A stretch of 7,904 nt of DNA from a virus (taxonomy: Duplodnaviria; Heunggongvirae; Uroviricota; Caudoviricetes): IMG/VR virus record IMGVR_UViG_2660238352_000010, positions 1-7,904 of that record; one strand, written 5' to 3'. Each line of letters starts with the position of its first letter. Position 1 is the first letter of the stretch. The position numbers and the translations under genes are program-made. Below, piece by piece: positions 1 to 7,904 of the stretch. The notes below the pieces were generated by a model. It ran no database searches, had not been told where the DNA came from, and saw only the letters and a program-made list of their open reading frames with translations.

Positions 1-89
1 TAGCTGGATTGAATACCCTTCAAAAGAGGTCCGCGACGCTGCTAATCAAAAGATGATGTCGGACCCACGGATGAAAGAGCTACTGGCCG

Positions 90-455
90 GTGTCGCAGTG
101 GGCGTCAGGCGCGGCAGCAAACAGTATGCTGGCATCATTCTTCCTTCAGACGGATGCATCAAATCTGAATCTTATGCACCACAAGGGCACGTCGAATGCA
201 CAACTTGGTACATTTGGTGCGTTTGACCATAACTGGCATACGGTTGTTTTCCGCTTTGCGGGAAATAACAGCGAAAGAGTCGTTCCGGTGATTGATGGTA
301 CAGAGCAGACGGCGTTTGACCTTGTGATGTGGACAAATGATGGCTTTACAGCAGATACGCTGACGCTGACAGATATCACGGGGGCAAAAGCGACGTATCC
401 TGTACTGCTTGATACGGTCACAGTCAAAGTTAACGAAAGCCGGGCATCATCATAA
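90..455 (+). CDS. Hypothetical protein, probably the 3' portion of a larger or frameshifted gene; function not recognised
   Basis: Frame 3 is open from 75 to the TAA at 453-455 and reads as a protein-like, beta-rich sequence (…FDHNWHTVVFRFAGNNSERVVPVIDGTEQTAFDLVMW…). The start is uncertain: GTG at 90 or ATG at 126, neither with a good SD. Frame 2 is open from the window edge to 238 and is also protein-like, so a frameshifted or left-truncated gene is possible. Confidence 0.35.
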   Translation: MSQWASGAAANSMLASFFLQTDASNLNLMHHKGTSNAQLGTFGAFDHNWHTVVFRFAGNNSERVVPVIDGTEQTAFDLVMWTNDGFTADTLTLTDITGAKATYPVLLDTVTVKVNESRASS

Positions 456-460
456 CCGGC

Positions 461-497
461 AAAAAAAGCCGCCAGCGGCAGGAACGGAAGCTGGCGG
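461..497 (-). terminator. Rho-independent terminator, minus-strand orientation
   Basis: An 8 bp GC-rich stem (ccgccagc 469-476 pairing with gctggcgg 490-497) with a 13 nt loop. On the + strand it is preceded by A7 (461-467), so on the minus strand the hairpin is followed by CUUUUUUU. There is no U-tract on the + side. Confidence 0.5.
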
Positions 498-547
498 AGG
501 TAATCCCAATGGAGAATGTAAAGAAAAGATGCTTTCGTATATCGGTT

Positions 548-576
548 TTTTAAATGAAAACAGTTCTCATTGTCAA
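548..576 (-). promoter_or_regulatory. Candidate sigma70 promoter on the minus strand
   Basis: Minus strand reads TTGACA (perfect -35, + coordinates 576-571), then a 17-18 nt spacer, then TTAAAA/TAAAAA (weak -10). It sits about 80 nt upstream of the minus-strand terminator at 461-497. Confidence 0.25.
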
Positions 577-594
577 CCATAACGGTAAGAAACT

Positions 595-789
595 ATGACA
601 TTTATTCATCAGGTGATGCTGTACTTCTGTACGGCGGTCTGTGTGCTGTATCTTCTTTCGGGTGGGTACAGGGCAGTGCGCGATTTCTGGCGCAGGCAGA
701 TTGATAAAAGGGCCGCAGAGAAAATCAGCGCCAGTCAGTCAGCCGGAGCAAAAACAGAAGCCCCACTCATTCCGGAACAACCTTCTTAA
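595..789 (+). CDS. Hypothetical small membrane protein (64 aa)
   Basis: ATG at 595 to TAA at 787-789. The N-terminus is hydrophobic (VMLYFCTAVCVLYLLSGGY), consistent with one TM helix, followed by a basic, charged tail. The SD is weak (aagaaa). No homolog recognised. Confidence 0.3.
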   Translation: MTFIHQVMLYFCTAVCVLYLLSGGYRAVRDFWRRQIDKRAAEKISASQSAGAKTEAPLIPEQPS

Positions 790-814
790 TAACCCCTTTC
801 AACGAGAAAATCCT

Positions 815-1105
815 ATGTCAGAAATAAAATCGCTGGTCACTGCTGAGGCAGTGAAGGAAGTCCTGCGCTCTGAAGAAGTCCGGAGCGCACTGAAACAGCA
901 ACTTCGGCAGAACCTTGAGGCGCGTCTTGATGCAGAAGTGGATTCAATTCTGGATGAATTGCTTGGTGCACAGCCGGAACCATCCCCGGAACTGCTTCCG
1001 GAACCACAGGCGGAAGATGTCACCACGGAAAATGGTGATATTCAGCCGGAGCCACCGGTGACGGATATGACAGACACACAGCCAGAATCGGGCACAATGC
1101 TGTAA
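815..1105 (+). CDS. Hypothetical acidic protein (96 aa) with a helical N-terminus and a Pro/Glu-rich, probably disordered C-terminus
   Basis: ATG at 815 is the first ATG after the in-frame TAA TAA at 787-792; the ORF-track start at 641 is an overlap artefact. The sequence is MSEIKSLVTAEAVKEVLRSEEVRSALKQQLRQNLEARLDAEVDSILDELLG…PEPSPELLPEPQAED… It ends at TAA 1103-1105, directly followed by a terminator hairpin. No homolog recognised. Confidence 0.45.
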   Translation: MSEIKSLVTAEAVKEVLRSEEVRSALKQQLRQNLEARLDAEVDSILDELLGAQPEPSPELLPEPQAEDVTTENGDIQPEPPVTDMTDTQPESGTML

Positions 1106-1115
1106 CGGTGAGTCA

Positions 1116-1153
1116 GGGTCATCAGTAAAGAGCTGGTGGCCCTTTTGTTGTTG
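1116..1153 (+). terminator. Rho-independent terminator, + strand
   Basis: A 10 bp stem (gggtcatcag 1116-1125 pairing with ctggtggccc 1133-1142, including two G-U pairs) with a 7 nt loop, followed by TTTTGTTGTTG (1143-1153). It lies between the 815..1105 ORF and the holin SD (GGGAGA at 1169-1174). Confidence 0.5.
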
Positions 1154-1180
1154 TGAGCTTCCGAGTACGGGAGACGGGGT

Positions 1181-1396
1181 ATGTACCAGATGGAAAAAAT
1201 CACAACAGGTGTGTCATACACCACGTCAGCGGTGGGAACGGGCTACTGGTTCCTGCAGTTGCTGGACAGGGTTTCCCCGTCTCAGTGGGCGGCAATAGGC
1301 GTGCTGGGGAGTCTGTTGTTTGGGCTGCTGACATATCTGACTAACCTGTATTTCAAAATCAGAGAGGACCGTCGTAAGGCGGCGCGGGGAGAGTAA
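1181..1396 (+). CDS. S: Class II holin of the phage 21 S / EssQ pinholin family (71 aa)
   Basis: The product [71 protein letters not shown] is near-identical over the C-terminal two-thirds to the P21 S21 / E. coli EssQ holin as I recall it (…[14 protein letters not shown]…[22 protein letters not shown]). It has a dual-start motif (Met1 and Met4), an SD GGGAGA 6 nt upstream, and two predicted TM helices. Confidence 0.9.
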
Positions 1397-1400
1397 AGCG

Positions 1401-1745
1401 ATGAAGAAAAAATACGAACTGGTTGTTAAAGGGATAAATAATTACCCGAATAAGATTACTGTTACTGTGGCACTGGAAATTGGTGGGTATCCGTCACTGT
1501 TGTTGCCAGATGTGGCGATTAGTCTTGACCGTACTGAAGATGCCACGCTGGAGTTTTACGAAGCTGAGGCGAAAAAGCAGGCGAAGCAGTTTTTCATGGA
1601 TGTTGCTGCCGGGTTATGTGAAGGGGATGGTCCGTTGCCGGAAAAGCGCCCCGTAATTTTAGAGGCGCAGGATGTGTTGATAACCTACAGAGGAAAACTA
1701 CCGGGAATAATTACTGGTTCTCTGAAGACTCCACCGCTGGCCTGA
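1401..1745 (+). CDS. YdfR-like DUF1327 family protein (114 aa), the usual gene between holin and endolysin in Qin-type lysis cassettes
   Basis: ATG at 1401 with SD GGGGAGAG (1386-1393), translationally coupled to the holin stop at 1394-1396. The N-terminus MKKKYELVVKGINNYP resembles the YdfR family as I recall it. Its position between S and R matches the essQ-ydfR-rrrQ arrangement. Confidence 0.7.
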   Translation: MKKKYELVVKGINNYPNKITVTVALEIGGYPSLLLPDVAISLDRTEDATLEFYEAEAKKQAKQFFMDVAAGLCEGDGPLPEKRPVILEAQDVLITYRGKLPGIITGSLKTPPLA

Positions 1746-1795
1746 AGACTTAACATATCCAGGGATTTGAAATCGATAAACCCTGATAAATATCC

Positions 1796-2833
1796 ATGAA
1801 CACCAAAATCAAATACGGCCTGTCGGCTGCCGTTCTGGCGCTGATTGCCGCAGGTGCGCCTGCGCCTGAAATCCTCGACCAGTTTCTGGATGAAAAGGAA
1901 GGTAACCACACCACGGCATACCGTGATGGCGCGGGTATCTGGACCATCTGCCGCGGTGCCATCCTGGTGGATAGTAAACCTGTCGTTCCGGGCATGAAGT
2001 TGTCGAAGGAAAAATGCGACCAGGTTAACGCCATTGAGCGTGATAAAGCGCTGGCGTGGGTGGAGAAAAACATCAGAGTGCCGCTGACCGAACCCCAGAA
2101 AGCGGGGATCGCGTCATTCTGTCCGTACAACATTGGTCCCGGTAAGTGTTTCCCGTCGACGTTTTACAGACGAATTAATGCTGGTGATCGCAGGGGAGCA
2201 TGCGAGGCGATTCGCTGGTGGATTAAGGACGGTGAGCGGTATTTTTTCTGTAATGAGCTGAATGAAAAAGGGGAGCCGGTCACCTGGCAGGGGCGGCAAT
2301 ATCAGGCGTACCCGATTGAGGGGAGTGGCTTTGAGATGAACGGAAAGGGCAGCAGTGCCCGCCCGTCGCTGACGGTGTCCAATCTTTTCGGCCTTGTCAC
2401 CGGAATGGCGGAGGATTTGCAGAGCCTGGTGGGGGCCACGGTGGTCCGCCGCCGGGTGTATGCCCGTTTTCTGGATGCGGTGAATTTCGTTGCGGGCAAT
2501 CCGGAAGCGGACCCGGAGCAGGAGCTGAGTGACCGCTGGGTGGTGGAGCAGATGTCGCAGCTGACAGCCATGACGGCCTCGTTTGTGCTGGCCACACCGA
2601 CCGAGACGGACGGGGCGCTGTTTCCCGGTCGTATCATGCTGGCGAACACCTGTATGTGGACCTACCGCTCTGATGAGTGTGGTTACACGGGCGGGGCTGT
2701 GGCGGATGAGTTCGATAAACCCACCACGGATATCCGTAAGGACAGATGCAGCAAGTGCATGCGCGGGTGTGAACTGCGCAGGAATGTCGGCAATTTTGGC
2801 GGTTTCCTTTCCATTAATAAACTTTCGCAGTAA
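1796..2833 (+). CDS. Chimeric ORF: SAR endolysin (T4-lysozyme-like, GH24) residues 1-146 fused in frame to the C-terminal 199 residues of minor tail protein L
   Basis: Residues 1-146 (MNTKIKYGLSAAVLALIAAGAPAPEILDQFLDEKEGNHTTAYRDGAGIWT…GACEAIRWWIKDG) match RrrQ/R21-type endolysins, with a Gly/Ala-rich SAR domain and an E35-x8-D44-x5-T50 catalytic triad. Residues 147-345 (ERYFFCNELNEKGEPVTWQGRQYQAYPIEGSGFEMNGKG…CSKCMRGCELRRNVGNFGGFLSINKLSQ) match lambda gpL from about residue 34 to its C-terminus, including the C-terminal Cys cluster. The junction is at about 2231-2236. Confidence 0.85.
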   Translation: MNTKIKYGLSAAVLALIAAGAPAPEILDQFLDEKEGNHTTAYRDGAGIWTICRGAILVDSKPVVPGMKLSKEKCDQVNAIERDKALAWVEKNIRVPLTEPQKAGIASFCPYNIGPGKCFPSTFYRRINAGDRRGACEAIRWWIKDGERYFFCNELNEKGEPVTWQGRQYQAYPIEGSGFEMNGKGSSARPSLTVSNLFGLVTGMAEDLQSLVGATVVRRRVYARFLDAVNFVAGNPEADPEQELSDRWVVEQMSQLTAMTASFVLATPTETDGALFPGRIMLANTCMWTYRSDECGYTGGAVADEFDKPTTDIRKDRCSKCMRGCELRRNVGNFGGFLSINKLSQ

Positions 2834-2838
2834 ATCCC

Positions 2839-3582
2839 ATGACAGAGACAGAATCAGCGATTCTGGCGCATGCCCGGCGGTGTGCGCCTGCGGAGTCGTG
2901 CGGCTTCGTGATAAGCACGCCGGAGGGGGAGCGGTATATCCCTTGTGTGAATATTTCCGCAGAGCCGGAGGCGTATTTTCGTATCGCACCGGAAGACTGG
3001 CTGCGGGCAGAGATGCAGGGGGAGATTGTGGCACTGGTCCACAGTCATCCCGGTGGACTGCCCTGGCTGAGCGAGGCCGACCGGCGGCTGCAGATAAAAA
3101 GCGCACTGCCCTGGTGGCTGGTCAGCCGGGGTGACATTCACAAATTCCGCTGCGTTCCGCACCTGACGGGACGGCGCTTTGCGCACGGGGTGACGGACTG
3201 TTACACGCTGTTCCGGGATGCATACCATCTGGCAGGCATTGATATGCCGGATTTTCATCGCGGGGATGACTGGTGGTGCAACGGTCAGAACCTTTACCTG
3301 GACAATATGGAGGCAACGGGCTTTTACCGGGTGCCCCTGTCCTCTGCACTGCCGGGCGATATCCTGCTGTGCTGCTTCGGCGCATCGGTGGCTAATCATG
3401 CCGCCATTTACTGCGGCAACGGTGAGCTGCTTCACCATCTGCCTGAACAGCTGAGTAAACGGGAGAGGTATTCCGAAAAATGGCAACGACGAACGCATTC
3501 TGTCTGGCGTCACCGCCACTGGCACGCATCTGCCTTCACGGGGATTTACAACGATTTGGCCGCCGCCTCAGCCTGTATGTGA
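2839..3582 (+). CDS. K: Tail tip assembly protein K (MPN/JAMM plus NlpC/P60 domains), 247 aa
   Basis: The product is close to lambda gpK (MTETESAILAHARRCAPAESCGFV…). It has a complete JAMM motif H68-x-H70-x7-S78-x2-D81 (VHSHPGGLPWLSEAD) and an NlpC/P60-type Cys121 (VTDCYTLF) with downstream His residues. The start is 5 nt after the L stop. It overlaps I by 103 bp. Confidence 0.9.
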   Translation: MTETESAILAHARRCAPAESCGFVISTPEGERYIPCVNISAEPEAYFRIAPEDWLRAEMQGEIVALVHSHPGGLPWLSEADRRLQIKSALPWWLVSRGDIHKFRCVPHLTGRRFAHGVTDCYTLFRDAYHLAGIDMPDFHRGDDWWCNGQNLYLDNMEATGFYRVPLSSALPGDILLCCFGASVANHAAIYCGNGELLHHLPEQLSKRERYSEKWQRRTHSVWRHRHWHASAFTGIYNDLAAASACM

Positions 3583-4160
3583 ACACGGCAGCGGAAGCCA
3601 TCCGCGCACTGTCGATGCAGGTGCCGGGCTTTCGCCGTCAGATGAACGAAGGCTGGTACCAGATACGCATTGCCGGTGAGGATACGGCACCGGAGGCGGT
3701 GTATGCCCGCCTTCACGAACCACTGAGTGAGGGAACGGTTATCCATATTGTGCCGCGACTGGCCGGGGCCGGAAAGGGTGGACTGCAGATTGTGCTGGGG
3801 GCGGCAGCCATCGTGGGCTCTTTCCTCACGGCCGGTGCCTCGATGGCGTTATGGGGTACAGCCCTGAGTGCCGGCGGTTTTTCTGCCACCACGATGCTGT
3901 TTTCACTGGGGGCCAGCATGATTCTGGGTGGTGTGGCCCAGATGCTGGCCCCGAAGGCAAAAACACCGGATTACCGCGCAACGGATAACGGCAGACAGAA
4001 CACGTATTTTTCGTCACTGGACAACATGATTGCCCAGGGTAACCCGATGCCGGTGCCTTACGGGGAAATGCTGGTTGGCTCCCGCCGTATATCCCAGGAC
4101 ATCAGTACCCGTGATGAAGGCGGGTGCGGAAAGGTCGTGGTTATCGGGCGGCAGGGGTAA
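3480..4160 (+). CDS. I: Tail tip assembly protein I (ubiquitin-like N-terminal domain, hydrophobic Gly/Ala-rich C-terminal half)
   Basis: The product MATTNAFCLASPPLARICLHGDLQRFGRRL…MLAPKAKTPDYRATDNGRQNTYFSSLDNMIAQGN…VVVIGR aligns along its length with lambda gpI as I recall it. A GG sits at residues 100-101 after the Ubl region. The stop is TAA at 4158-4160. Confidence 0.9.
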   Translation: MATTNAFCLASPPLARICLHGDLQRFGRRLSLYVNTAAEAIRALSMQVPGFRRQMNEGWYQIRIAGEDTAPEAVYARLHEPLSEGTVIHIVPRLAGAGKGGLQIVLGAAAIVGSFLTAGASMALWGTALSAGGFSATTMLFSLGASMILGGVAQMLAPKAKTPDYRATDNGRQNTYFSSLDNMIAQGNPMPVPYGEMLVGSRRISQDISTRDEGGCGKVVVIGRQG

Positions 4161-4167
4161 AAAGAAT

Positions 4168-4201
4168 AAAAAAAATCCCGCAGTGATCGCGGAGCTGCGG
4201 G
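4168..4201 (-). terminator. Rho-independent terminator, minus-strand orientation
   Basis: A 7 bp stem (cccgcag 4177-4183 pairing with ctgcggg 4195-4201) with an 11 nt loop. On the + strand it is preceded by A8 (4168-4175), so the minus-strand RNA ends …CUGCGGGAUUUUUUUU. There is no U-tract on the + side. Confidence 0.6.
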
Positions 4202-4262
4202 GACAGACAAAGATTAGAGTTAAGGAGTTGTTTTTGTTACTCGGGCAAAAAAACACTAACGC
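4168..4262 (-). ncRNA. Candidate prophage-encoded small RNA (~95 nt), minus strand, between tail genes I and J
   Basis: The unit is bounded by a near-consensus sigma70 promoter (TTCACA, 16 bp spacer, TATAAT) with a predicted TSS near 4262, and by the intrinsic terminator at 4168-4201. No plausible ORF is contained. The predicted RNA is 5'-GCUGCGUUAGUGUUUUUUUGCCCGAGUAACAAAAACAACUCCUUAACUCUAAUCUUUGUCUGUCCCCGCAGCUCCGCGAUCACUGCGGGAUUUUUUUU-3', with a CA-rich tract and an anti-SD-like CUCCUU. Confidence 0.45.
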
Positions 4263-4268
4263 AGCGAA

Positions 4269-4296
4269 ATTATACGCGCCACAGTCAGTTTGTGAA
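4269..4296 (-). promoter_or_regulatory. Sigma70 promoter on the minus strand (-35 TTCACA, 16 bp spacer, -10 TATAAT), with an A/T-rich upstream region
   Basis: On the + strand, ATTATA at 4269-4274 is the reverse complement of a perfect TATAAT, and TGTGAA at 4291-4296 is the reverse complement of TTCACA (5/6 to TTGACA). The minus-strand sequence upstream of the -35 (…ggcataaaaattctgaatatc) is A/T-rich and UP-element-like. Confidence 0.55.
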
Positions 4297-4368
4297 AATG
4301 TGAAGATATTCAGAATTTTTATGCCATTACCGGTTTTTACCAACAGGATTATCGGTGGACATGAAAGA

Positions 4369-4404
4369 AAACCCCGGTATCTGCTGATACCGGGGTTTCT
4401 CTTT
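4369..4404. terminator. Bidirectional intrinsic terminator: perfect 13 bp stem, 4 nt loop, U-rich tracts on both strands
   Basis: aaaccccggtatc (4369-4381), loop tgct, gataccggggttt (4386-4398). The + strand is followed by TTCTCTTT; the minus strand is followed by UCUUUCAU after the stem. It lies about 100 nt upstream of the J start and about 70 nt upstream (minus sense) of the minus-strand promoter. Confidence 0.6.
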
Positions 4405-4501
4405 AGCATGGCAGAAATGTGTTTCATGCTTTTCGGGCGAAGGATATCCGACTTCTGTACGGAATGGCAAGTGGCGGTTAATTTATTCAGGGGAAGGCTG
4501 T

Positions 4502-7500
4502 ATGGGAAAAGGTGGCGGTAAGGCACACACGCCTCGTGAGGCGAAGGATAATCTCAAATCCACGCAGATGATGAGCGTGATTGATGCGGTTGGTGAGGGA
4601 CCGATAGAAGGCCCGGTGAAGGGACTGCAGAGTATCCTGGTGAACAAAACCCCGCTGACGGACACGGACGGTAATCCCGTGATACACGGTGTGACGGCGG
4701 TCTGGCGCGCCGGGGAGCAGGAGCAGACACCACCGGAAGGCTTTGAGTCCTCCGGAGCTGAAACTGTACTGGGCGTGGAAGTGACGAAGGCAAAACCGGT
4801 GACGCGCACCATTACGTCCGCGAACATTGACCGCCTGCGGGTTACCTTCGGGGTGCAGTCACTGGTGCAGACCACGTCAAAGGGTGACCGAAACCCGACA
4901 TCCGTCCGCCTGCTGATTCAGTTACAGCGTAACGGTAACTGGGTGACAGAAAAGGATGTCACCATTAACGGCAAGACCACCTCGCAGTTTCTGGCGTCGG
5001 TGATTCTGGATAATCTGCCTCCCCGTCCTTTTAACATCCGGATGGTCCGGGAGACGGCGGACAGCACCACGGACCAGTTGCAGAACAGAACACTCTGGTC
5101 ATCGTACACCGAAATCATCGATGTGAAACAGTGCTACCCGAACACGGCGATTGTGGGGCTGCAGGTGGATGCGGAGCAGTTCGGTGGTCAGCAGATGACG
5201 GTGAACTACCATATCCGCGGTCGCATCATCCAGGTGCCGTCAAACTATGACCCGGAAAAACGCACCTACAGCGGTATCTGGGACGGCAGTCTGAAACCGG
5301 CATACAGCAACAACCCGGCCTGGTGCCTGTGGGACATGCTGACTCACCCGCGCTACGGGATGGGAAAACGTCTGGGGGCGGCGGATGTGGACAAGTGGGC
5401 GCTGTATGCCATCGGGCAGTACTGCGACCAGACGGTCCCGGATGGTTTCGGGGGCACAGAGCCGCGGATGACCTTTAATGCGTACCTGGCACAACAGCGT
5501 AAGGCGTGGGACGTTCTCAGTGATTTCTGCTCGGCGATGCGCTGTATGCCGGTATGGAACGGCCAGACGCTGACGTTCGTTCAGGACCGCCAGTCGGATG
5601 TGGTGTGGCCGTACACGAACAGCGATGTGGTGGTGGATGATAACGGCGTGGGGTTCCGCTACAGCTTCAGTGCCCTGAAGGACCGGCACACGGCGGTGGA
5701 GGTGAATTACACCGACCCGCAGAACGGCTGGCAGACCTCCACGGAACTGGTGGAAGACCCGGAAGCCATACTGCGCTACGGACGCAACCTGCTGAAGATG
5801 GATGCGTTCGGCTGCACCAGTCGCGGTCAGGCCCACCGTGCCGGGCTGTGGGTGATAAAGACAGAACTGCTGGAAACGCAGACGGTGGATTTCACACTCG
5901 GGTCACAGGGGCTGCGGCACACACCCGGTGACATCATTGAAATCTGTGATAACGACTATGCCGGAACCCTGACCGGCGGACGTGTCCTGTCCATTGATGC
6001 TGCCACCCGCACCCTGACGCTGGACCGTGAAGTGACACTTCCGGGGACAGGTACATCGACGGTGAACCTGATTAACGGCAGCGGTAAGCCGGTGAGTGTG
6101 GACATCACCGCACACCCCGCGCCGGACCGGATACAGGTCAGTACCCTGCCTGATGGTGTGGAGACATACGGGGTGTGGGGACTCTCCCTGCCGTCACTGC
6201 GCCGTCGCCTGTTCCGCTGTGTCTCCATCCGGGAAAACACGGACGGCACCTTTGCCATCACGGCAGTGCAGCACGTACCGGAAAAAGAAGCCATTGTGGA
6301 TAACGGAGCCCGCTTTGAGCCGCAGTCAGGCACCCTGAACAGCGTTATCCCACCGGCAGTGCAGCACCTGACGGTGGAGGTGAGCGCAGCTGACGGCCAG
6401 TATCTGGCGCTGGCGAAATGGGACACGCCGCGGGTGGTGAAGGGCGTGCGCTTCAGTCTGCGCCTGACCAGTGGAAGCGGTGAGAACAGCCGCCTGCTGA
6501 CCACCGCCATCACTGCCGATACGGAGCACCGTTTCAGTGGCCTGCCTCTCGGGGAATACACCCTGACGGTCAGGGCGATTAACAGCTATGGCCAGCAGGG
6601 CGAACCCGCCACCACCACGTTCCGGATTAACGCACCGGCAGCGCCTGCCGGTGTTGAACTGACGCCGGGGTATTTTCAGATAACGGCGGTACCGCGTCTT
6701 GCGGTGTATGACCCGACGGTGCAGTTTGAGTTCTGGTTTTCGGAGGCAAAAATTGCAGACGCCGCACAGGTGGAAACCTCTGCCCGTTATCTGGGGACCG
6801 GCAGTCAGTGGAGTGTCTCCGGCCCGCACATTAAGCCCGGAAAGGATTTCTGGTTTTATGTGCGCAGCGTCAACCTGGTGGGTAAATCTGCTTTTGTGGA
6901 AGCCAGTGGACGGGCGAGCAATGATGCTGCGGGCTATCTGGAACTTTTCCGGGAAAAGATAGGAAAAACGCATCTGGCAGAGGCGCTGTGGGCAGAGATT
7001 GACAACAGTCAGCTGAAGGACGAGATGGCGGAAATGCAGACCACCATCACAGAAACCCGCAATGAAATCACACAGACGGTCAGTAAAACGCTGGAGGACC
7101 AGAGCGCCACCATACAGCAGATACAGCGCGTGCAGAAGGACACAAATGATGACCTTGCTGCACTTTACATGCTGAAGGTACAGAAAACAAAAAATGGCAT
7201 ACCCTATGTTGCCGGTATTGGAGCGGGGATTGAGGATACTGATGGCCAGCCCCTGAGCAACATACTGCTGCTGGCTGACCGTATTGCGATGATTAATCCG
7301 GAGGACGGCAACACCACGCCGTTATTTGTGGCGCAGGGGAATCAGTTGTTCATGAACGATGTGTTCCTGAAGCGGCTGTTTGCGGTGAGTATCACCTCGT
7401 CCGGCAATCCCCCGACGTTTTCCCTGACGCCGGAGGGCAGGCTGACCGCAAGAAATGCTGATATCAGCGGTAACGTGAATGCGAATTCCGGGACGCTCAA

Positions 7501-7904
7501 CAACGTCACGATTAACGAGAACTGTCGGGTTCTGGGAAAACTGTCCGCGAACCAGATTGAAGGCGATCTCGTTAAAACAGTGGGCAAAGCTTTCCCCCGG
7601 GACTCCCGTGCACCGGAGCGGTGGCCATCAGGGACCATTACCGTCAGGGTTTATGACGATCAGCCGTTTGACCGGCAGATTGTTATTCCGGCGGTGGCAT
7701 TCAGTGGCGCTAAGCATAAGAGAGAGCATACTGATATTTACTCCTCATGCCGTCTGATAGTGCGGAAAAACGGTGCTGAAATTTATAACCGTACCGCGCT
7801 GGATAATACGCTGATTTACAGTGGCGTTATTGATATGCCTGCCGGTCACGGTCACATGACACTGGAGTTTTCGGTGTCAGCATGGCTGGTAAATAACTGG
7901 TATC
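4502..7904 (+). CDS. J: Host specificity / central tail fibre protein J, 3' end truncated by the window edge
   Basis: ATG at 4502 with SD GGGGAAGG upstream. The frame is open to the window end (1134 codons). The N-terminus [39 protein letters not shown]… and long stretches (…[31 protein letters not shown]…, …[34 protein letters not shown]…, …[11 protein letters not shown]…) match lambda gpJ as I recall it. It is absent from the ORF track only because no stop lies inside the window. Confidence 0.95.

Follow-up and report, generated by a model that had tools for sequence, protein, structure and literature searches.

A stretch of viral DNA of 7,904 nucleotides (nt) (Caudoviricetes; IMG/VR record IMGVR_UViG_2660238352_000010, positions 1 to 7,904; hereafter the window) was identified by Pfam domain and open reading frame (ORF) analysis as a lambda-like tail module, and the minus strand of the gap separating its tail genes I and J carries a unit that the initial annotation had called a candidate novel small RNA (sRNA). 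The stop of I is at 4160 and the start of J at 4502, not 4503, giving an I-J gap of 341 bp; the corresponding gap of phage lambda, from the I end at 15444 to the J start at 15505, measures only 60 bp. Both lengths had been given correctly, the lambda one as about 60 bp, and the difference supports the view that the unit is an insertion relative to lambda. The unit is an allele of PasB, an sRNA that is already known, and not a new RNA. We observed the following features in the gap and at its borders.

3480..4160, plus strand: tail assembly protein I gene (Pfam Lambda_tail_I, E = 2.8e-16); aligns with the I gene of prophage PP6 of strain E2348/69, its 3' end lying within the conserved homology block
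4168..4262, minus strand: pasB-family sRNA gene, window allele (PasB probe match and alignment with NC_011601 1466261-1466343)
4168..4201, minus strand: intrinsic terminator, stem CCCGCAG/CUGCGGG pairing 4201-4195 with 4183-4177 (7 bp), 11-nt loop, U8 tail at 4175-4168
4202..4227, minus strand: central single-stranded region CUCCUUAACUCUAAUCUUUGUCUGUC, putative seed or target-binding segment and the allele-variable part, unpaired in the minimum-free-energy and centroid folds
4227-4222, minus strand: CUCCUU, read from the sequence
4238-4227, minus strand: CA-rich tract AACAAAAACAAC, read from the sequence
4269..4296, minus strand: sigma-70 promoter, -35 TTCACA at 4296-4291, 16-nt spacer, -10 TATAAT at 4274-4269 (11 of 12 consensus matches)
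4297..4325, minus strand: A/T-rich UP-like tract upstream of the -35, at the end of the conserved pasB module
4502..7903, plus strand: tail tip/host specificity protein J gene (Pfam GpJ domains), continuing beyond the end of the window

Read along the minus strand, the gap contains, in order, a 14-bp hairpin, an A/T-rich tract, the promoter, a body of about 95 nt and a terminator with its U8 tail. All the elements that had been listed were found, at or within 1-2 nt of where they had been placed, and the description of a self-contained unit of promoter, sRNA and terminator that runs antisense to the late operon is supported. A consensus scan of positions 3400-5200 returned three promoter-like sites against 0.9 ± 0.9 in shuffled sequences; simple promoter and terminator scans of this type are prone to false positives. 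The -35 region is nearly identical in the loci of E2348/69 and of Stx2c phages, and the homology block shared with E2348/69 and the Stx phages stops near 4325. The RNA would be 95 nt long if transcription starts at 4262, 7 nt past the -10, and about 80 nt long if its 5' end is at 4247, the position equivalent to the reported end of PasB. The CA-rich tract and CUCCUU are both present in the predicted RNA, as had been noted. Regarding their accessibility, the predicted folds leave 4202-4227 unpaired, and the tract AACAAAAACAAC is unpaired in the 80-nt form but paired with the 5' U-run in the 95-nt form. The terminator together with the U-tail likely constitutes the Hfq-binding 3' module.

PasB (E2348CN_0006) was described in prophage PP6 of the enteropathogenic Escherichia coli (EPEC) O127:H6 strain E2348/69 as an 83-nt RNA encoded on the minus strand of NC_011601.1, from 1466343 to 1466261, and was detected by Northern blot with the probe AATCCCGCAGTGATCGCGGAGCT (Pearl Mizrahi et al. 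2021, PMC8550237, Table S6). This probe matches the window in 23 of 23 positions at 4174-4196, with 0 matches expected by chance. The gene order of the E2348/69 locus is that of the window (I, antisense RNA, J), and the alignment of the two sequences starts at the end of I, covers the terminator, the RNA body and both promoter hexamers, and extends to about 4325, some 30 bp upstream of the -35. The identity with PasB follows from the exact probe match, the alignment to the PasB gene of NC_011601 and the common position between I and J; the proposal of a novel sRNA is therefore not sustained, whereas its placement among the Hfq-bound sRNAs of prophages from EPEC and enterohaemorrhagic E. coli (EHEC) is supported. 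Northern blotting confirmed PasB; its stability depends on Hfq, its level falls in a Δhfq strain (log2 fold changes of −6.8 and −2.4), and it is among the most connected sRNAs of the accessory genome in RIL-seq (ligation and sequencing of interacting RNAs) experiments (PMC8550237). It has been reported to be restricted to Escherichia and Shigella (Zhu, Shabalina & Storz, bioRxiv 2026).

The counterparts in EHEC are EcOnc22, EcOnc23 and EcOnc24, from prophages Sp15, Sp14 and Sp11 of O157:H7 strain Sakai; EcOnc22 is about 85 nt long, is encoded antisense to I and J and is destabilised in a Δhfq strain (Tree et al., Mol Cell 2014, Table S2). We found that the I-J gap of Sakai Sp15 (positions 1992-2231 of our locus L127) carries a divergent copy of the pasB module, and that the EcOnc22/23/24 probe GGGAGAGAACGATGAAGATTAAC... 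is complementary to the antisense RNA of this gap. Table S6 of the EPEC paper gives no EHEC homologue for PasB (PMC8550237), and a 2021 review lists the targets and function of EcOnc22-24 as unknown; the literature examined treats PasB and EcOnc22-24 separately, and the family link proposed here is drawn from position and alignment. The window agrees with this family in its layout, since I ends at 4160, the RNA 3' end lies at 4168 and J starts at 4502, E2348/69 and Sakai Sp15 being alike in this respect, and it also carries the promoter (11/12) and the terminator (7 bp and U8), both of which are conserved across alleles. Taken as a whole, the interval 4168-4325 (minus strand) is best explained as a 'moron'-type sRNA gene of the PasB/EcOnc22-24 family, a reading to which we assign a probability of roughly 0.85. 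By analogy with PasB of E2348/69 and EcOnc22 of Sakai, the window allele would be expected to produce an Hfq-dependent RNA of about 80-100 nt.

The family is widespread. Among 5426 complete E. coli genomes, 1785 contain it, at 3755 places and with up to eight copies per genome; the unit is conserved and recurrent, far beyond what chance would give. The window allele itself (≥ 99% identity) accounts for 46 records in these genomes; NZ_CP049845.1 (UPEC-245U/190328) carries an identical sequence at 232505-232637. None of 30 sampled E. coli matches was annotated. A 21-mer from the promoter occurs in at least 119 IMG/VR contigs. When 80 viral loci were collected with protein I, instead of the RNA, as the anchor, the I stop and the J start were both locatable in 52, every one of which contains the module; it lies 6-8 nt after the I stop in every allele examined, even though the RNA body varies. 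An alignment of 41 distinct alleles revealed a fixed chassis composed of a 5' GCGUUA, a U-run, CUCC-like and AAUCUU elements and the terminator stem; the stem, AAUCUU and GCGUUA are invariant or nearly so, and the 5' and central segments vary. The seven stem pairs of the terminator are invariant in the 41 alleles, and its loop varies in sequence and length.

Outside E. coli, a scan of genome contigs with the promoter 21-mer returned only E. albertii and two probable contaminants, in agreement with the reported restriction to Escherichia and Shigella (Zhu, Shabalina & Storz, bioRxiv 2026). The contaminants are a 546-bp contig assigned to Asaia platycodi JCM 25414 (L124, NZ_BAKW01000035.1) and a 3408-bp contig assigned to Streptomyces flavalbus (L126), both with the pasB promoter of an E. 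coli prophage and the latter with a complete and unique pasB allele; most likely, they are E. coli or phage DNA contaminating the assemblies. In L124 and in L035 (IMG/VR 2534681940_000025), an insertion sequence separates the -35 of pasB from the -10; its first ORF presumably belongs with the OrfA proteins of the IS629/IS3 family, which it resembles. These insertions would be natural knock-outs of the sRNA.

With regard to targets, PasB occupies the RNA2 position in its chimeras with mRNAs under the non-activating RIL-seq condition, and the single row with PasB as RNA1 corresponds to a leader RNA of prophage PP2. The most frequent mRNA partners are E2348C_2648 (71 chimeras), the napF 5' untranslated region (70), map (67), nlpD-rpoS (56), hflX (55) and fabR (50), followed by bfpB, raiA, caiF, espC, ftsZ, tolC, rplX and others. 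We analysed the complementarity of PasB to eight partner regions, out of about 30, using windowed duplexes and counts of exact complements, given that duplex folding over long windows yielded uninterpretable long-range loops. Nucleotides 37-58 of the 98-nt E2348/69 RNA (UCCUUCACAUUGAUCUUCAUUU) hold perfect matches to several partners: 11 nt across the GUG start of napF (−5 to +6), 11 nt in the Shine-Dalgarno region of yijD (−17 to −7; the 'fabR' chimeras), 9 nt in caiF (+4 to +12), 10 nt in rpoS (+33 to +42), and 7 + 7 nt over the Shine-Dalgarno sequence and the AUG (−13 to +3) of the PP9 gene downstream of E2348C_2648 (E2348C_RS14200). Altogether, 19 matches of at least 7 nt were counted, compared with 6.1 ± 2.7 (maximum 15) in 200 shuffles. 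The location of these matches suggests that the seed lies in the unstructured centre of the RNA, which is also its allele-variable part, and indicates that PasB would repress translation by occluding the start site.

In this segment, the window allele differs from PasB of E2348/69, and its 9-11-nt matches to napF, yijD, caiF and rpoS are all lost. The duplex energy summed over the eight partners is −169.5 kcal/mol for the E2348/69 allele, −127.8 kcal/mol for the window allele and −115.9 kcal/mol for the class B allele. Since the seeds are different, the targets of the window allele probably differ from those of E2348/69 PasB. A prediction that can be tested is that napF, yijD and caiF are repressed by one allele and not by the other, CUUCACAUUGA being the segment that would take part in the pairing.

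The window allele retains UGUCUGUC, which pairs with GACAGACA in the dominant partner of PasB. This partner, with 774 chimeras in three libraries, is a plus-strand RNA from the intergenic region between the esterase and holin genes of prophage PP2; the homologous region of prophage PP5 contributed another 54 chimeras. The PP2 RNA spans 283-412 of our locus L137 (NC_011601 743482-743611, plus strand), between a SASA esterase and a class II holin; besides having a terminator of its own (L137 432-458), it shows an antisense overlap with the 5' end of pasA. It is not discussed as a PasB partner in the PasB literature that we examined. The holin-leader target site is absent from the window, and a search for a target inside the window gave only two complementary 8-mers, against 4.9 ± 3.6 expected.

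Several observations weigh against assigning the unit to this family and its seed to the central segment. The evidence of expression comes from the homologues PasB and EcOnc22. The published 5' end of PasB, equivalent to 4247, is 15 nt downstream of the start near 4262 predicted from the -10, which would give the 95-nt RNA. The published end was set from read coverage and an approximate band size (PMC8550237), and PasB reads in the RIL-seq data start no further 5' than 1466344; few parts of the family are as conserved as the 15 nt between both positions (GCGUUAGUGUUUUUU). This offset makes it necessary to assume processing in the U-run or a different start, unless read coverage underestimates the 5' end. 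In addition, the alignment shows no covariation: the sole consensus structure is the terminator, and its seven pairs are invariant. A hairpin between the 5' U-run and an A-rich segment is compatible with 92.7% of the alignment cells, a value not above that of shuffles; it includes one pair with a double change and is not predicted by RNAalifold. As for the seed, it was assigned with simple complementarity counts from 8 of about 30 RIL-seq partners, and only three of the eight duplexes individually surpass the shuffles. Finally, published accounts give the function as unknown (Zhu, Shabalina & Storz, bioRxiv 2026; 2021 review).

The remainder of the gap, between the pasB module and J, contains two features of its own.

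4326..4501, no strand: 'long-form' cassette between the pasB module and J, an alternative to the unrelated shorter cassette of E2348/69 and Sakai
4368..4399, no strand: GC-rich hairpin of 14 bp lying between an A-tract and a T-tract, −28 kcal/mol for each strand, z = −8.5

Gap lengths fall into two classes, a long form of 338-344 bp and a short form of 234-240 bp, and the long-form cassette is nearly invariant in 110 copies. In the I-J gaps of the viral loci, RNA allele and cassette type occur in all combinations, which indicates recombination breakpoints inside the gap of about 340 bp, near window position 4325. The hairpin, which had been called a minus-strand terminator, is present at 4399-4368 and was flagged as such in our scan; none of 200 shuffles folded equally well. 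Given that A and T runs flank the hairpin on both sides, termination could occur in either direction. In the short-form cassette, another hairpin, with a plus-strand T-tract behind it, occupies this place; both forms thus have, separating J from the module, a strong hairpin whose T-tract is on the plus-strand side. The window hairpin is a probable bidirectional terminator or insulator.

This arrangement bears on the possibility that the unit acts primarily in cis on the late operon. Its RNA is perfectly complementary to the I-J spacer of the late mRNA, and convergent transcription or RNase III cleavage of the duplex could adjust how much J (tail tip) is made compared with I, or keep leaky late transcription silent in lysogens, with the contacts in trans being secondary. 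The constant location of the module in the I-J gap, 6-8 nt past the I stop despite a variable RNA body, is consistent with a role of this kind, as is the hairpin with its plus-strand T-tract in both cassette types. However, late mRNA is essentially absent in lysogens, yet PasB and EcOnc22 are abundant, bound to Hfq and engaged with many partners in trans; no chimeras with the I-J antisense region appear among the listed PasB partners; and lambda copes with a 60-bp gap. Moreover, polymerase modified by Q is expected to read through terminators, and would therefore ignore those of the unit. We consider a cis-acting function improbable.

Less probable still, and by a wide measure doubtful, is that the RNA is an anti-sRNA, or sponge, of the AgvB/AsxR class, whose CA-rich tract imitates GcvB targets and titrates GcvB or another GU-rich sRNA. 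The tract AACAAAAACAAC is present and exposed in the 80-nt form, prophage anti-sRNAs are known in EHEC, and the 774 chimeras with the PP2 esterase-holin RNA show that PasB contacts another non-coding prophage RNA. Nevertheless, CACAACA, the motif targeted by the R1 region of GcvB, is absent from the window RNA, and with the GcvB of E2348/69, located by Rfam, the best PasB duplex reaches −15 kcal/mol, which is worse than the −17.7 to −18.5 kcal/mol obtained with shuffled PasB. No GcvB-PasB chimera occurs among the top-listed sRNA-sRNA rows of the two RIL-seq conditions, nor among the non-activating PasB rows, whereas GcvB-SroC was recovered more than 1000 times in the EPEC data. Furthermore, PasB appears as RNA2 with about 30 mRNAs, as base-pairing sRNAs do; AgvB and AsxR are encoded downstream of PR', and their conserved 3' domain and any Rfam match are lacking here. 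The suggestion of a GcvB decoy was thus not upheld. The idea that CUCCUU is a seed or sponge motif holds in its first half, because this motif lies within the putative target-binding region, inside a longer seed, and fails in its second, since the RNA behaves as an ordinary mRNA-targeting sRNA.

The statement that the island has no credible ORF also holds in substance. The ORFs that cross it are 4014-4526 on the minus strand, 4030-4521 on the plus strand and one of 66 amino acids (aa) annotated in phage ASU11; a minus-strand ORF of 47 aa (4327-4470) lacks a Shine-Dalgarno sequence, no small ORF of the island matches a PHROG family, and the alleles differ by indels of 1-5 nt and in the length of the U-run. 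The ASU11 record (ON416862.2) places its 66-aa hypothetical protein at the equivalent of 4321-4521 (plus strand), through the 14-bp hairpin and overlapping the start of J; it is probably an annotation artefact, since it has neither a Shine-Dalgarno sequence nor a PHROG match. That the gap is a non-functional spacer with chance motifs, or a gene for one of these 66-aa or 47-aa proteins, can hardly be right: simple consensus scans do yield false positives and one phage record does annotate a protein, but homologues are transcribed and bound to Hfq in two pathotypes, a third of complete E. coli genomes have the conserved module, the ORFs cross the hairpin and are absent from short-form loci, and the indels between alleles would break any frame across the RNA.

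Returning to the PasB-family sRNA gene, its own sigma-70 promoter would let the prophage express it without relying on the late operon. The transcription start would be near 4262, the mature 5' end near 4247 may arise by processing, and transcription would end at the CCCGCAG/CUGCGGG hairpin and U8. Hfq would be bound by the terminator and U-tail, and the central region 4227-4202 would pair with trans-encoded mRNAs, mostly over the Shine-Dalgarno sequence or the start codon, repressing their translation; most likely, the cassette 4326-4501 would insulate the unit and J from read-through. It is possible, if somewhat unlikely, that the I-J gap functions as a seed-swapping locus, in which a fixed chassis, with a near-identical promoter in most of at least 40 alleles, is re-targeted by its variable centre and 5' part. 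The window allele would then regulate genes other than those of E2348/69 PasB, PasB and EcOnc22-24 would be one family, and this family could mediate control of lysis or late genes between prophages, a possibility raised by the dominant PasB partner, a leader RNA that precedes the holin gene in a co-resident prophage. That the strongest partner in vivo lies upstream of a holin gene is a hint of cross-talk between co-resident prophages.

Being a rediscovered, published sRNA, the unit requires no new category. What remains of modest interest is that its seed is putatively allele-specific, that the EPEC and EHEC names can be brought together, that annotation and an Rfam model are missing, and that there may be a link to a holin-leader RNA of other prophages. 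Scans will go on flagging the family as novel, because it was unannotated at 30 of 30 sampled matches and no Rfam family matches it; a covariance model or an annotation rule would cure this.

The rest of the window includes gene K (2839-3582, plus strand; JAB and NlpC/P60 domains) and, upstream of it, a 345-aa ORF (1796-2833, plus strand) in which a phage lysozyme domain (residues 33-147) is in frame with minor tail protein L (residues 146-343), the junction lying near 2234. The genes upstream of this fusion are those of a lysis region (DUF826 at 641-1105 and DUF1327 at 1401-1745) and not terminase, head or tail-shaft genes. No complete E. coli genome contains window positions 1-2900 contiguously or spans the junction near 2234 in one piece; the junction reflects a rare deletion in a defective prophage, or else a chimera of the assembly. 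At about 462-500 (minus strand), after an esterase-like gene ending at 453, there is a GC-rich hairpin with a U7 run, at the position occupied in other prophages by sRNAs of the PasA, PasC and Esr41 type. It gave only a sub-threshold Esr41 match (20.5 bits against a cut-off of 102), and a simple scan found no promoter for it. This hairpin may be the 3' end of a second antisense sRNA.

In comparison with known systems, an Rfam search of the whole window returned no family at the gathering score, and the interval 4100-4560 gave only noise at E ≤ 10 (for example, Hrs1, with 22 bits against a cut-off of 56); PasB of E2348/69 and EcOnc22 of Sakai have no Rfam family match either. HnrS (EcOnc10/11/12), a prophage sRNA of 66 nt that occurs in multiple copies and represses hha (PLoS Pathog 2026, PMC13502914), has in common with the window family a location in the prophage late region, association with Hfq and multiple copies through multiple prophages, and it represses by pairing at the ribosome-binding site. 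It differs in length and sequence, and in its 15 nt complementary to the mazF 3' end; this complementarity is absent from the window, E2348/69 and Stx2c alleles, the longest match being 7 nt and confined to the Stx2c allele, so HnrS was rejected as an identity.

AgvB and AsxR resemble the window family in design. Both groups are short Hfq-binding morons of lambdoid prophages, antisense to late transcription, that combine a variable target-recognition part with a conserved terminator part. AgvB and AsxR, however, are 51-60 nt long, have GcvB and FnrS as their sRNA targets and lie downstream of the Q-antiterminated PR' (the stx/moron site) instead of between I and J; their conserved 3' domain of about 42 nt is absent from the window. 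Neither RF02702 nor RF02703 matched at the gathering score in the whole window or at E ≤ 10 in 4100-4560, and the proposal that the RNA is a member or relative of this class was discarded, the locus also being different.

The EcOnc22-24 RNAs, of about 85 nt and both bound and stabilised by Hfq, share with the window allele the antisense I-J position, the terminator stem, AAUCUU and the CUCC core; their promoter and 5' half are divergent, and their seed is CUCCAUAACGUUAAUCUUCAUCGUUCUC. The closest relative is PasB itself. The antisense I-J position, a 3' end 6-8 nt from the I stop, an identical -35 hexamer and a -10 TATAAT are common to both, as are the first 41 nt and, not counting the U-tail, the last 48 nt; the tail of the window allele has one U more. 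The promoter-J cassette of the window is unrelated and 100 bp longer, and the centre of the RNA reads CUCCUUAACUCUAAUC----UUUG in the window against CUCCUUCACAUUGAUCUUCAUUUG in PasB, a difference of four substitutions and a 4-nt deletion.

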